Positions 16,383 to 29,740 of a stretch of DNA of 64,000 nucleotides are shown one piece after another. The translations under genes and the position numbers were made by a program. Position 1 is the stretch's first letter. Each line of letters starts with the position of its first letter. Source of the stretch: Candidatus Moraniibacteriota bacterium (GTDB lineage: Bacteria > Patescibacteriota > Minisyncoccia > Moranbacterales > UBA1568); the NCBI GenBank assembly GCA_963743885.1, contig CAVURJ010000002.1, positions 36,721-100,720 of the forward strand. The letters run 5' to 3'. The notes under the pieces are model-generated. The model was given only the letters and a program-made list of their open reading frames with translations. It was not told the origin of the DNA and did no database searches.

Positions 16383-16416
16383 CTGTTAACGGGTTCACGA
16401 GTTAACGGGTTATCGG
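16383..16416. repeat. GTTAACG-module repeat (member of the HpaI-site palindromic family)
   Basis: ctGTTAACGggttcacgaGTTAACGggtt, i.e. tandem units built on the 8-bp palindrome CGTTAACG. Confidence 0.6.
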
Positions 16417-16483
16417 AAAGAAAACCTGGATCCCGGCTCGAAGGCCGGGATGACAGAAAGAGAAGATGTTTTTTGGAAAAATG

Positions 16484-16517
16484 AAAAGCCCAGAGGTCGT
16501 TTGACGTGGGCTTTTGG
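16484..16517. terminator. Bidirectional intrinsic terminator
   Basis: aaaagccca...tgggctttt: symmetric stem with an A-run upstream and a T-run downstream. Serves rsmI (+) and the small minus-strand ORF. Confidence 0.65.
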
Positions 16518-16535
16518 TTCCGGTTGACGCGTTGG

Positions 16536-16703
16536 TCAGAACGGAAAGGTTGGGAGGATGGCTTCGGCAAGGTATCCGCCGGCGACCATCAGAAGGATGA
16601 CGAGGGCGAGACCGCCGAATGCTGCGAGCGGAGCCGGAATGTCCTCAAGCGAAAGGGCACGAGGACGATTGAGCGAACCCCAACTGCTGCCATGATTGTT
16701 CAT
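16536..16703 (-). CDS. Small membrane protein, 55 aa (below the ORF-track size cut-off)
   Basis: ATG at 16703 with GGGAG 6 nt upstream. Sequence 'MNNHGSSWGSLNRPRALSLEDIPAPLAAFGGLALVILLMVAGGYLAEAILPTFPF'. Terminator immediately downstream. Confidence 0.35.
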   Translation of the reverse strand: MNNHGSSWGSLNRPRALSLEDIPAPLAAFGGLALVILLMVAGGYLAEAILPTFPF

Positions 16704-16774
16704 GCTATACTCCCAGTAGGTTGAAATGTACTAATGTGTATTATACACCTAAAAATAGATAAAGTCAAGGGCGT

Positions 16775-18235
16775 ATGACTGAAAATACCGAAAACAAGCC
16801 TTTTTATATCACGACGACGCTGCCGTATGTGAACGGCAAGCCGCATGTCGGCTATGCCATGGAAATCATCCAGGCGGACGTCATTGCCCGGTTCCATCGG
16901 CTAGCCGGGGATGAGGTGGTCTTCAATATCGGGACGGATGAGCATGGGCAGAAGATCTATCAGAAGGCGGCCGAGCTCGGCCAGACGCCGCAGGAGTACT
17001 GTGACGCGATGTCGGAGCATTTCCGGGCGCTTCGTGATCTGCTCGGGGTGAGCTTCACACACTTCGTCCGGACGACGGATGAGCATCATATCGCGGCGGC
17101 CCAGGTGTTCTGGCAGCGCTGCGCGGACAATGGAGACATCTATAAGAAGCAGTACCAGGTGAAGTACTGTGTGGGTTGCGAGCTTGAGAAGACGGATTCT
17201 GATCTTGATCATGGCAAGTGTCCGGATCATCCGAACATGGAGCTTGAGTTGATCGATGAAGAGAATTATTTCTTCCGGTTCTCGAAGTACCAGCAGCCGC
17301 TCCTCGATCTCTATGCAGCGCGGCCGGATTTCGTCGTGCCGAGCAATCGGCTGGTAGAGATCAGGAACTTCGTTGAAAAAGGATTGCAGGACTTCAGTAT
17401 CTCGCGTGTGAGAGAGAAGATGCCGTGGGGGATCGCGGTGCCAGGTGATGACAGTCAGGTGATGTATGTCTGGTTCGATGCGCTTGCGAACTACATCACG
17501 ACGCTCGGCTGGCCGGAGAACGAGGCGGACTTCGCGAAATTTTGGCCGGGGACCCAGATCGCCGGCAAGGACAACCTGCGCCAGCAGTCGGCCATGTGGC
17601 AGGCGATGTTGCTTTCCGCTGGTCTTGAGCCGTCGCGGCAGATCCTGATCCATGGGCATATCCTTTCTGCTGGACAGAAGATGTCGAAGAGTCTCGGCAA
17701 CGTAATCGCGCCGGAGGAGCTGACGGAAAAATTCGGTACCGATGGGACGCGCTACCTTCTGCTCGCTTCGGGCAACCTTGAGAGCGATGCTGACATCACG
17801 ATGGAACGTCTGGCGGAGCAGTACAATGCGCATCTCGCCAACGGACTCGGCAATCTCGTGTCGCGGGTGATGAAGCTTTCGGAGAAAATCAGTGAACAGT
17901 CAGCAGCTAACAGTCAGCAAGATGCTGAGAGTACCGAAGGCGAGAAAGTGTTGCTTGATAGCGTGGCAGGATTCATCAGCGAGTATCGTTTCGCTGATGC
18001 ACTCGGCAGGATATGGGAGGTGGTGCGCGAGGCCAACCGCTTCATCGATGAAGAGAAGCCGTGGGAGCTTGTGAAGACCGATCAGGTGAGATTTGATGCG
18101 GTCATGCGGCAGCTTCTGGCCAATATTGCGCTTATCGAAGTGGCACTCCAGCCGCTCCTGCCCGGGACAGCCGAGAAGATCAACCAGGCGCTCGCAACCG
18201 GTGTGACGGAGCCGTTGTTTAAACGTATCGCATAG
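16775..18235 (+). CDS. metG: Methionyl-tRNA synthetase
   Basis: HIGH-region 'PYVNGKPHVGYAMEI', Zn knuckle 'CVGCE...CPDH', KMSKS 'KMSKSLGNVI'. Confidence 0.9.
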   Translation: MTENTENKPFYITTTLPYVNGKPHVGYAMEIIQADVIARFHRLAGDEVVFNIGTDEHGQKIYQKAAELGQTPQEYCDAMSEHFRALRDLLGVSFTHFVRTTDEHHIAAAQVFWQRCADNGDIYKKQYQVKYCVGCELEKTDSDLDHGKCPDHPNMELELIDEENYFFRFSKYQQPLLDLYAARPDFVVPSNRLVEIRNFVEKGLQDFSISRVREKMPWGIAVPGDDSQVMYVWFDALANYITTLGWPENEADFAKFWPGTQIAGKDNLRQQSAMWQAMLLSAGLEPSRQILIHGHILSAGQKMSKSLGNVIAPEELTEKFGTDGTRYLLLASGNLESDADITMERLAEQYNAHLANGLGNLVSRVMKLSEKISEQSAANSQQDAESTEGEKVLLDSVAGFISEYRFADALGRIWEVVREANRFIDEEKPWELVKTDQVRFDAVMRQLLANIALIEVALQPLLPGTAEKINQALATGVTEPLFKRIA

Positions 18236-18254
18236 CTTTTTTTGCTGTATCAAT

Positions 18255-18443
18255 ATGGGAAACGTCTCACTCGATGAAAATGCTGCTCTTGAACGGGAGA
18301 TATCCGATGCGACTGAGGAATTTGTTCGCGATATGGAGCAGATACGGAAGCGGCGTGAAGAACTTCTGGCATCCTGGATGAAGGCAGCAGATGAGAGGCG
18401 GCAGCATGAGATAACAGAGAAGATATATGGCAAAGAATCCTGA
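18255..18443 (+). CDS. Small charged helical hypothetical protein, 62 aa
   Basis: ORF overlaps the start of the next gene by 17 nt. No clear RBS. Call is tentative. Confidence 0.3.
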   Translation: MGNVSLDENAALEREISDATEEFVRDMEQIRKRREELLASWMKAADERRQHEITEKIYGKES

Positions 18444-27745: not shown

Positions 27746-27830
27746 AGCTGGAATTTTGAATCTGGAATCTTGGAGTTCAAAACCAAAATTCTAGATTCTA
27801 AATTCGAGATTCGGATTTAGGAAGTTGTTT
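27745..27830. repeat. AT-rich heptad tandem-repeat tract
   Basis: ggaattttgaatctggaatcttgg...aattctagattctaaattcgagattcggatttagg. 7-bp period, same unit family as 24527-24650. Confidence 0.55.
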
Positions 27831-27835
27831 GGAAA

Positions 27836-27878
27836 AAAGAAAAGCCCCGGCGCGGTTGCGACAGGGCAGGTGTTCGGA
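27836..27878 (-). terminator. Terminator module AAAAAAGAAAAGCCCCGGCGCGGTTG... (minus-strand orientation)
   Basis: On minus: GC-rich hairpin followed by TTTTCTTTTTT. A near-identical ~30-bp module recurs at 34205-34240. Confidence 0.5.
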
Positions 27879-27889
27879 TGATGAAGGCC

Positions 27890-28120
27890 TCAGTCGATGA
27901 CAATCACGAGATCGTTCGGCTTGATAATGCAGAAACCTCCTGTGCCACGAAGATACCCTGCATTGTAGCCGTCGTCATCGGTGGTGAGTTTCTGAAGGAG
28001 CGGGACGACCCCACCTCGCTCGAGATCTGCGATGCAGATGAACTTGGTATGGGAAGGAACCTCAGAAAAACGATGAGCCCTTCTGAAGGTAACTACGAGG
28101 TTGAAGTTAGTGAGTGGCAT
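27890..28120 (-). CDS. Hypothetical small protein, 76 aa (orphan, divergent from the operon)
   Basis: AGGAG 9 nt upstream of the ATG on minus. Shared terminator module downstream. No recognisable family. Confidence 0.45.
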   Translation of the reverse strand: MPLTNFNLVVTFRRAHRFSEVPSHTKFICIADLERGGVVPLLQKLTTDDDGYNAGYLRGTGGFCIIKPNDLVIVID

Positions 28121-28276
28121 GCTCGGCTCCTATATGCGTCTTGGGTTGGTAAGAGTGCGACTGCTCATACTGGTATAAAAACGAAAAAAAGTCAATCCCA
28201 GTTACATGCGGATATGTAACGGGACAAGTATCTCATAACGTAATTAATCAAGATTTTTCCTTAATCAAGTAACACT

Positions 28277-29665
28277 ATGGCGAATACAGGAAAGCTTATC
28301 CAGATCATCGGGCCGGTGGTGGACGTGGAGTTCGCCGAAGGCTCGGTCCTCCCGAAGGTGTACGATGCTCTCGAAATGAAGAACGGCGAAGAGAAGCTCG
28401 TGGCTGAGGTGCATCAGCACTTGGGCGGCAATCGCGTGCGTGCCGTGTCTATGGGCACGACGGACGGCCTCCGGCGTGGGACGGAAGTTGTCGCGACGGG
28501 TACTCCGATCTCGGTGCCGGTTGGTAAGGAAGTCTTGGGACGCATGTTCAATGTGCTTGGCGATGCCATCGATGGCAAGGAGAATGTCGTAGCGGTGAAG
28601 AGAAATTCGATCCATCGCAGTGCGCCAGCCTTTGATGAACAGTCGACCAAGGCGGAAGTTTTCGAGACGGGTATCAAGTCTGTTGACCTCATCTGTCCGT
28701 TCATGAAGGGCGGTAAAGTGGGTCTCTTTGGTGGTGCGGGTGTGGGCAAGACGGTCGTCATCCAGGAGCTCATCCGCAACATCGCATCGGAACACGGTGG
28801 TTACTCGGTATTCGCCGGTGTCGGCGAGCGTACTCGCGAGGGCAATGACCTCTATCATGAAATGAAAGACTCGGGCGTGCTCGACAAGACAGCGCTCGTG
28901 TTCGGTCAGATGAATGAGCCGCCGGGATCACGCCAGCGCGTGGCGCTTTCCGCGCTTACTATGGCGGAATCGTTCCGTGATGACGAGGGCAAAGACGTGC
29001 TTCTTTTCATCGATAATATTTTCCGTTTCACCCAGGCTGGTTCTGAGGTGTCAGCGCTTCTCGGCCGCATCCCGTCAGCGGTGGGGTATCAGCCGACCTT
29101 GGCTGAGGAGATGGGTGGTCTCCAAGAGCGTATCACATCGACTAACAAGGGCTCTATCACCTCCGTGCAGGCGGTGTATGTGCCGGCCGACGACCTCACT
29201 GACCCGGCGCCGGCGACGACCTTCGCTCACCTCGACTCGACGGTTGTGCTCAACCGCGCTCTGACCGAGATCGGCATCTATCCAGCCGTCGACCCGCTCG
29301 ATTCGAGCTCGACTATCCTCGATCCGCAAATTATCGGCGAGCGCCACTACGCCGTGGCTCGTGGCGTACAGAAGATCCTCCAGCGCTACAAAGACCTCCA
29401 GGACATTATTGCCATCCTTGGTATGGAAGAGTTGTCCGATGAGGATAAGCAGACCGTGGCGCGCGCTCGTAAGATCCAGAAGTATCTCTCGCAGCCGTTC
29501 TTCGTGGCAGAACAGTTCACTGGTAGTAAGGGCAAGTACGTGAAGCTTGAGGACACGATCTCTGGTTTTGAGCGCATCCTCTCGGGCGAGCTCGATGATA
29601 TCGCCGAGCAGGCGTTCTATATGAAGGGTTCGATCGAAGAAGTGATCGCGGAAGGACGCAAGTAA
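28277..29665 (+). CDS. atpD: F0F1 ATP synthase subunit beta
   Basis: '[19 protein letters not shown]' N-terminus, Walker A '[15 protein letters not shown]', 'DELSDED' DELSEED-like loop. Confidence 0.9.
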
Positions 29666-29687
29666 TTACTGTTGTTTGGTTAACGAG

Positions 29688-29740
29688 TTTGGCGAGTTAA
29701 CGAGTTGAAAAACCCGTGAACCCGTTAACGCGTTAACGGA
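29688..29740. repeat. GTTAACG-module palindromic repeat (atpD|atpC junction)
   Basis: gGTTAACGAGTTtggcgaGTTAACGAGTTgaaaaacccgtgaacccGTTAACGCGTTAACGg. Confidence 0.6.

Follow-up and report, generated by a model that had tools for sequence, protein, structure and literature searches.

A dispersed palindromic repeat built on GTTAACG occupies three junctions of an ATP synthase operon in a Patescibacteria genome

The DNA analyzed here, a 64-kb stretch of a Candidatus Moraniibacteriota contig with a GC content of 53% (hereafter the window), carries on its plus strand a cluster of genes for an F-type ATP synthase (22268-30196). All eight genes were identified by Pfam matches: atpB (22268-23083), atpE (23249-23476), atpF (23478-23966), atpH (24126-24527), atpA (24648-26147), atpG (26230-27150), atpD (28277-29665) and atpC (29747-30196). 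The cluster is syntenic with those of L001, the closest genome in a GTDB-based collection, and of L110, where synteny with the window is complete from rsmI through atpC; in the window, the gene for an RsmI-type TP_methylase (Pfam) lies at 15650-16381. Four modules containing the heptamer GTTAACG, all of them intergenic, are the subject of this work: M1 (16383-16416), which begins 2 nt past the stop codon of the rsmI-like gene, M2 (23094-23174) between atpB and atpE, M3 (26150-26214) between atpA and atpG, and M4 (29677-29740) between atpD and atpC. GTTAACG occurs 16 times on both strands of the window, against 4.39 ± 2.19 expected, a count reached in none of 100 shuffled sequences, and every occurrence falls within the four modules. 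The original prediction had rightly located all four modules, and only the start of M4 had to be moved, from 29688 to about 29677. Avoidance of a restriction site was rejected: GTTAAC was found three times outside the modules where 1.6 were expected under a 5-mer Markov model, which yields no restriction-modification signal.

The repeat unit consists of GTTAACG followed by one variable base, with a period of 8 and 3.2-4.5 copies per arm as counted by TRF. The 8-bp palindrome CGTTAACG, previously taken as the unit, does not qualify: it occurs just three times in the window, a count matched by 10 of 100 shuffles, and is absent from M1 and M2. A full copy spans approximately 65 nt and is asymmetric. 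Its left arm reads GTTAACGAG-TTT(N)GCGAG-TTAACGNG-TT and leads into a short A/T-rich loop, and its right arm reads AACNCG-T(T/G)AACNCG-TTAACNCG-TTAAC, alternatively written AACNCG-TTAACNCG-TTAACCCG-TTAAC. Both arms are thus built of 3 to 5 tandem units of GTTAACG plus one free base, and the stem is made of 7-bp blocks with a mismatch at every eighth base. The middle unit of the left arm is irregular and lies opposite a regular unit of the right arm, which generates a conserved asymmetric internal loop; because this loop is fixed and asymmetric, the orientation of each copy can be called. Reverse-complemented M2 and M3 match forward M4, both by eye and in a MAFFT alignment, and the arm GTTAACGAGTTT(N)GCGAGTTAAC is the leading one in M4, its complement forming the trailing arm of M2 and M3. 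In agreement with this, nhmmer profile scores of the three full copies were 63-68 bits in the assigned orientation versus 27-31 bits in the opposite one (M2, 62.9 bits on the minus strand versus 31.1 on the plus strand; M3, 68.2 bits, minus; M4, 63.7 bits, plus). Hence one and the same operon carries copies in both orientations. M1, by contrast to these full elements, is a single arm of four octads (GTTAACGG GTTCACGA GTTAACGG GTTATCGG) whose complementary half is absent; it gave a weak nhmmer match to one arm and was not assigned a strand. Because GTTAAC contains TAA and is repeated every 8 nt, none of the six reading frames is free of stop codons in M2 or M3, and only one is in M4.

M3 begins 3 nt past the atpA stop codon (26147) and ends 15 nt ahead of the atpG start codon (26230), in a spacer of 82 nt, and the predicted hairpin of M4 has its base at 29670-29746, 1 nt ahead of the atpC start codon (29747), in a spacer of 81 nt. 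The repeats of the atpB-atpE junction sit between the atpB stop codon (23083) and a promoter-like site, TGGACA-17-TATAAT (23179-23207, plus strand, 11 of 12 consensus matches), which lies directly 3' of M2 and 5' of atpE; TGGACA-17-TA(T/G)AAT is likewise present in the atpB-atpE spacers of L110 and L001. A second promoter-like site, TTGACG-17-TAGAAT, was observed at 22164-22192, just past a terminator-like hairpin (22118-22144). As judged from these sites, the atp cluster probably has at least two promoters.

Folding of the plus-strand RNA yielded imperfect hairpins of -26.6 kcal/mol for M2 (z -3.52), -21.6 kcal/mol for M3 (z -3.82) and -29.4 kcal/mol for M4 (z -4.90), none of 200 shuffles folding as well in any case; the opposite strand folded about equally well. 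Stem-loops, as anticipated in the original prediction, are thus predicted at the three junctions. Intrinsic terminators were considered and discarded for M2-M4: no T-run follows the stems, the post-stem sequences being GGATTTGG, GGAGAATA and ATCAACAA, and a terminator scan that found canonical terminators elsewhere in the window called none at any module. Lacking a U-tract, M2-M4 should not terminate transcription. A known RNA family was rejected as well, as Rfam gave no match at any GTTAACG module; over 14000-31500 its sole matches were chance-level miRNA models, located on heptad hairpins. Across 15 full copies, the consensus hairpin comprises 21 pairs with 96.8% of cells paired, so that copies do share a structure, though only by virtue of their conserved sequence: none of the 21 pairs showed a compensatory double change, and shuffles equalled the observed values. 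The hairpin is maintained through sequence conservation, which is silent for or against selection at the RNA level. One-sided changes from G-C to G-U were frequent in AT-rich copies (25 wobble cells versus 10 broken). They were not taken as a sign of strand-specific RNA selection, because this number of wobbles is about that expected from the C:G content of the right arm and its C-to-T drift, with the left arm fixed by the search that retrieved the copies.

That search consisted of one scan of a metagenome collection with the core pattern GTTAACGAGTTT(N)GCGAGTTAAC, which has 22 specified bases; as the pattern fixes the left arm, the way in which copies were retrieved accounts for part of this arm's conservation. 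The exact arm core of 22-23 nt was recovered in 29 metagenome contigs with GC contents of 25-56%. Of the 29 copies, 28 lie between genes and face either way with respect to their neighbors, and the sole exception is inside a candidate open reading frame (ORF) in L085. Their positions range from operon interiors to divergent spacers and to sites right behind stop codons; a stop codon is frequently no more than about 20 nt away, and in several cases the copy follows one at 14-17 nt. Among the neighboring genes are rpsA, gyrB and ppa, rmlD and glyA, uvrD, nusB, rpmF and pilin genes, as well as cassettes of small genes that appear toxin-antitoxin-like by eye. Many contigs carry the full two-armed element, with the right arm drifted to AATTCGTTAATTCG in the AT-rich ones, and M2, M3 and M4 align over their full length with at least nine foreign copies. 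A profile search added copies overlooked by the pattern that retain the irregular unit, such as GTTAACGGGTTTGGCGAG and GTTAACGAGTTGAGCGAG. The copies vary chiefly at the eighth base of the units and in the loop. As for density, the window holds four copies in 64 kb, and several other contigs hold two or three per 6-10 kb. The AT-rich carriers belong to the Patescibacteria, their ribosomal protein L2 being nearest to Minisyncoccia and Parcubacteria proteins with 62-67% identity, and the core is identical in at least two divergent lineages of this phylum. The window genome is Moranbacteria-like by its AtpG neighbors. A phage or plasmid origin was rejected, no match being found in viral contigs, phages or plasmids.

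Closely related atp operons were compared next to those of more distant Patescibacteria. At the atpA-atpG junction, two loci with AtpG identities to the window of 95% (L111) and 93% (L113) have empty spacers of 11 and 9 nt, respectively, whereas unrelated heptad-armed elements occupy it in L112 (94%), with a TTTTCAA-type hairpin in a spacer of about 105 nt, and in L110 (92%), with a TTTCTAA-type element in one of 182 nt. The latter type recurs in L110 at the atpD-atpC junction (184 nt). In L001 (AtpG 73%, AtpA 87% identical), atpA-atpG is an empty 9-nt spacer, atpD-atpC measures 14 nt, and GTTAAC is absent from 21 kb. The atp locus of L003 also lacks GTTAAC, those of L002 and L004 have one stray site each, and the hexamer is found at no atp junction of L110-L113. 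The modules are thus missing from the relatives' atp junctions, and atpA-atpG, atpD-atpC and atpB-atpE are without the element in L001 and L110-L113, a pattern of presence and absence at orthologous sites of the MITE (miniature inverted-repeat transposable element) type. More broadly, no copy was found in nine of ten Patescibacteria-like atp loci of the genome collection, nor in L111-L113. The sole shared copy is M1, which has an ortholog, CAGTTAACGAGTTCACGCGTTAACGGGTT, 3' of rsmI in L110 (259-290). Because close relatives have empty or differently filled junctions, the short junction is most likely ancestral, and M2-M4 are lineage-specific insertions, with M3 and M4 in junctions that measure 9-14 nt in relatives such as L001.

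The remaining junctions of the cluster are also occupied, as had been claimed, with the exception of the 1-nt atpE-atpF junction. The atpF-atpH junction carries a 159-nt hairpin element (-39.8 kcal/mol); the heptad-armed '125-bp element' at this place (23969-24108, plus strand) belongs to a separate repeat family with four copies in the window. Heptad-armed hairpins with GATTTAG and ATTCTAA units fill atpH-atpA (24528-24647, plus strand, -30.5 kcal/mol), and another (27746-27822, plus strand) lies in atpG-atpD, 3' of an inserted ORF6N-domain gene (27221-27745, Pfam) and alongside a small antisense ORF. In L110 the '125-bp element' is absent from a 3-nt atpF-atpH spacer, and a hairpin is present in a 128-nt atpE-atpF spacer. 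Genome-specific heptad-armed hairpins were also seen at atp junctions of the more distant L002, L004 and L006, and none at those of L003, L007, L008 and L011. Per 10 kb, the window has 4.1 arrays of period 7 or 8 and L110 has 10.5, against a mean of 0.8 in 70 loci assigned to non-Patescibacteria from their record titles. The same junction slots have been filled independently by different repeat families, with an occupancy that turns over quickly among close relatives.

M2, M3 and M4 belong to one widely dispersed, intergenic family, are absent from close relatives and lack a terminator signature. Combined, these features suggest that M1-M4 represent a small dispersed repeat of Patescibacteria, palindromic and without coding function, similar to repetitive extragenic palindromic (REP) sequences or MITEs, which colonizes permissive spacers including the interiors of operons; we assign to this reading a probability of about 0.68. 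A trans-acting factor that reads GTTAACG units may spread or maintain the copies. In the atp transcript these would fold into stable hairpins without a U-tract and act at most incidentally, as barriers to 3' exonucleases or as substrates of RNase III, and M3 and M4, which abut stop and start codons, could hinder termination or initiation of translation. The copies would be tolerated, not selected to set the ratios of ATP synthase subunits, and any effect on atp mRNA would probably be passive. Of the two alternatives offered in the original prediction, that of REP-like selfish repeats tolerating operon interiors is therefore favored by the dispersal of the family, its varied intergenic contexts, its two orientations and its absence from the relatives' atp junctions, and that of spacers tuning subunit stoichiometry is not supported: in the comparison with related genomes that the prediction itself had set as a refuting check, relatives with near-identical subunits have empty junctions or other occupants, and the orientation is mixed. 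Any hairpin might nonetheless have some generic effect on atp mRNA.

Several observations weigh against a REP- or MITE-like nature. No transposase, REP-associated tyrosine transposase (RAYT) or parent insertion sequence turned up, though no systematic search for them was made, and the multi-copy loci L084, L098 and L100 showed no ORF with inverted copies on its flanks. Neither a target-site duplication nor an exact boundary could be defined, the filled atpA-atpG junction of the window aligning poorly with the empty ones of L111, L113 and L001. Three of the four window copies are in a single operon (hypergeometric p ~0.025, calculated post hoc), a clustering that selection or local copying could each cause. 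Moreover, when the right arm, which is free of search bias, is considered, the window copies are 0.73-0.80 identical to each other, yet up to 0.97 identical to copies from distant genomes (M3 versus the copy of L089, a contig of 31% GC). A core unchanged across genomes 30 GC points apart is unusual for REP families, and this constancy points to a sequence-specific constraint, such as one imposed by a conserved protein, over simple selfish decay, although part of the signal stems from the way the copies were retrieved.

Two further readings involve a conserved factor. In the first, which we regard as speculative and rather unlikely, the facing arms of GTTAACG plus a free base, with their asymmetric loop, would be the recognition site of a conserved Patescibacteria protein and, together with the sister families of heptad-armed hairpins, would constitute a phylum-wide system of intergenic signals. 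Candidates for the recogniser would be a single-strand transposase that has become domesticated, or a factor that binds RNA or DNA. If true, this would explain why the core is nearly invariant at 25% to 56% GC although single copies are gained and lost. In the second reading, somewhat less probable still, the arrays would be DNA- or RNA-binding sites of a conserved Patescibacteria factor that serve the host as insulator, operator or structural or processing signal, and would not be selfish. The exact asymmetric core of 22-23 nt in contigs of such different composition, the retention of the irregular middle unit GTT(T/G)NGCGA in copies found by profile only, and the restriction of most variation to the eighth base and the loop would all fit a host function; so would the location of M2 directly upstream of the conserved atpE promoter-like site and, in AT-rich contigs, that of the reverse-complemented motif at a fixed distance before extended -10-like boxes of successive small-gene cassettes. 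However, orientation relative to the downstream gene shows no clear bias (about 11 versus 9 when repeated cassettes are counted once), and positions span operon interiors, sites past stop codons and divergent spacers. Presence is patchy, too: copies are missing from nine of ten Patescibacteria-like atp loci and from L111-L113, and in L110 the ortholog of M1 is the only one. Close relatives manage without the copies, and the conservation of the left arm is partly a product of the copy search.

Selection acting on the atp mRNA itself is a weaker contender, and improbable in our estimation. Here, the hairpins would be selected intercistronic elements that tune subunit stoichiometry through differential stability or translation of segments of the transcript. 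Stable hairpins at three junctions, other hairpin elements at three more, the placement of M3 just behind the atpA stop and of the M4 stem just ahead of the atpC start, and the concentration of three of the four copies in this operon are all compatible with such a role, as is the recurrence of some hairpin, if of other families, at atp junctions of L110, L112, L002, L004 and L006. By contrast, L001, L111 and L113 have empty junctions despite very similar atp proteins, and both the occupant and the junction filled vary among genomes with AtpG identities of 92-95%: atpE-atpF is 1 nt long in the window versus 128 nt in L110, and atpF-atpH is 159 nt versus 3 nt. Both orientations coexist in the operon, the same element adjoins many unrelated genes, and no covariation supports selection on the RNA. 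Finally, an origin in place, by replication slippage expanding a short unit followed by formation of a palindrome and with no copying between sites, is highly improbable: the arms are indeed tandem arrays with a variable number of units (3 to 5), heptamer repeats elsewhere in bacteria are ascribed to polymerase slippage in a passage of PMC4679880 that cites Mrazek 2007, and heptads have expanded even inside the TatD and LeuRS genes of the window genome, but independent origins would not reproduce three features common to M2-M4 and copies of unrelated contigs, namely an irregular middle unit, an asymmetric internal loop and decayed units at the outer ends. Slippage may still alter the number of units after insertion.

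With the dispersed-repeat reading thus preferred, the element was compared to known systems. It works like a REP or MITE hairpin, but its assignment to either family is not proven, as neither a RAYT nor a parent insertion sequence nor a target-site duplication was found. REP families are generally specific to a species or genus. The GTTAACG element resembles REPs and bacterial interspersed mosaic elements (BIMEs) of enterobacteria and pseudomonads, which are mobilized by RAYT Y1 transposases, in being a short imperfect palindrome found between genes, often just past stop codons, within operons and in both orientations, and in being transcribed as a stable hairpin without a U-tract. It differs from them in its greater length (about 65 nt), in arms made of tandem 8-nt units with a periodic mismatch, and in a core common to lineages of 25-56% GC. 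Decay of REP-containing mRNAs needs PNPase and RNase R (PMC12320835), and hairpins of the REP or Correia type can slow 3' exonucleases or undergo cutting by RNase III (PMC12320835, PMC2649163, PMC10969869). With MITEs, such as the Correia repeat enclosed elements (CREE) of Neisseria, ERIC, the RUP, BOX and SPRITE elements of pneumococcus and Chunjie of Geobacter, the element shares its non-autonomous, hairpin-forming and intergenic character, its tolerance inside operons, its presence or absence at one site among close relatives, and terminal inverted repeats in a short non-coding sequence. Promoters can be provided by CREE copies, which can also bind IHF and undergo either cleavage or protection by RNase III (PMC2649163, PMC2229807, PMC10969869, PMC3049150). 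Unlike in MITEs, the arms here are internally repetitive and not unique terminal inverted repeats, and the phage, plasmid and viral collections contained no match.

Tandem units of 7-8 nt, mostly intergenic and with a scattered phylogeny, are also known from heptamer arrays, which include the short tandemly repeated repetitive (STRR) sequences of cyanobacteria, long simple sequence repeats (LSSR) and the TAACTGA arrays of Beggiatoaceae (PMC4679880). The outer units of M2, TAACTGGA TAACTGGA, resemble TAACTGA, and binding by some nucleic-acid-binding protein has been proposed for arrays of that type (PMC4679880). TAACTGA arrays are, however, direct repeats, mainly in one orientation just upstream of start codons, with only one indirect repeat reported (PMC4679880), whereas GTTAACG arrays come as facing complementary pairs that form a hairpin, with a palindromic unit and mixed orientation. 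Rickettsia palindromic elements (RPEs) are comparable as palindromic repeats spread through a reduced genome and, like the in-frame heptad arrays in TatD and LeuRS of the window, sit inside genes (PMC10969869); full GTTAACG copies, by contrast, are closed by TAA stop codons in five or six of six frames, and just one of 29 copies lies inside a candidate ORF, that of L085.

Other candidates were rejected. The attC sites of integrons have RYYYAAC...GTTRRRY boxes and stand in uniform orientation behind mobile cassettes with an integrase nearby. The GTTAAC ends of the present element miss each box by at least one base, and the element occurs in both orientations between housekeeping genes (atp, gyrB and ppa, rmlD and glyA). 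Tandem interspaced guide RNA (TIGR) arrays consist of tandem 36-nt units with two variable spacers of 8-9 nt beside a gene for Tas, a Nop-domain protein (PMC12045711), as opposed to 8-nt units with one variable base, two facing arms and no adjacent candidate gene. Sites of the parS, dif, CtrA and LexA types were dismissed on spacing, orientation or context by comparison with their general features. The literature searched contained no description of the GTTAACG motif, of MITE or REP elements in Patescibacteria, or of hairpin repeats with arms of 7-8-nt units.

For the atp operon, the outcome is deflationary: its structured spacers are best read as recent passengers, not to be annotated as regulatory architecture. 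More generally, the streamlined genomes of Patescibacteria carry several families of small hairpin repeats with arms built of tandem 7-8-nt units. These families replace one another rapidly at shared junctions and even enter essential genes in frame. Such repeats can mislead gene calling and assembly, and in uncultured lineages they can mark recent changes of the genome. The constancy of the GTTAACG core across lineages points to a trans-acting factor that could be sought.

Further arrangements of the motif were noted in other contigs. In the AT-rich L082, L098, L100 and L104, each of the small, toxin-antitoxin-like cassettes is headed by a common module with the order reverse-complemented GTTAACG arm, TAAATAATTTTTAATTGTAATTAG..GTGATATAAT, 7-8 nt and ATG (for example L100 1852-1925 and 2450-2523), which by its sequence looks like a repeated promoter for leaderless mRNAs. 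A general association of the element with promoters was rejected, as the extended -10 boxes come mostly from these paralogous modules and the orientation bias vanishes when cassettes are counted once. In three distinct contigs the motif caps an 18-bp outer stem and the composite adjoins tRNA or tmRNA genes (L090 475-535, identical in L095; L106 ~1235-1290; L108 265-330); the outer stem is AGAAACAGT / ACTGTTTCT, replaced in L108 by AGAATCAGT / ACTGATTCT, a compensatory change.

Other repeats of the window were also recorded. The four copies of the '125-bp element' (14392-14504, 15567-15674, 23969-24081 and 36193-36297) share one orientation and the core ATTCAAAATTACAAGCTCCAAATAAATC; weak matches were found in the 31% GC contigs L084 and L089, and in L084 a copy is nested between arms of the GTTAACG element (9445-9482 and 9601-9635). 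A different, G+C-rich hairpin repeat, TGTCATCCTGAGCGAAGCGAAGGATC... and its complement, was seen in the window (37098-37185), at atpA-atpG and atpD-atpC of L004, at atpG-atpD of L006 and upstream of atpD in L113, which suggests another cross-lineage family. TatD (19926-21053) has 375 amino acids (aa) versus 298 in its L110 ortholog. The 77 extra residues all fall in alignment gaps, by eye at in-frame heptad arrays (20151-20211, 20325-20372 and 20677-20707, with CATACGA, GAACAGT and ATCACTT units), indicating that heptad repeats also enter coding sequences. LeuRS (31239-34145) has 968 aa versus 825 in L110; a perfect AAGAATC array of 4.6 copies (32046-32077) encodes LKNQESRIKNQEE, the corresponding site of L110 being taken by another peptide that also seems to derive from repeats, LLNFQFPISNFQ, and a further ~135 aa are inserted around residues 385-520.

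Within atpG-atpD, the inserted ORF6N gene is missing in L110-L113. The antisense ORF of 76 aa (27890-28120), which has no Pfam match, was matched by eye to sequence of L110; in L112 and L113, an antisense gene of 67 aa occupies its position. Downstream of the cluster, two very large ORFs were present, one of 5212 aa (41654-57292) and one of 1492 aa (57324-61802), the latter with 225-nt tandem repeats (58471-59893 and 60248-61369) that encode repeats of the GDVNGDG type.

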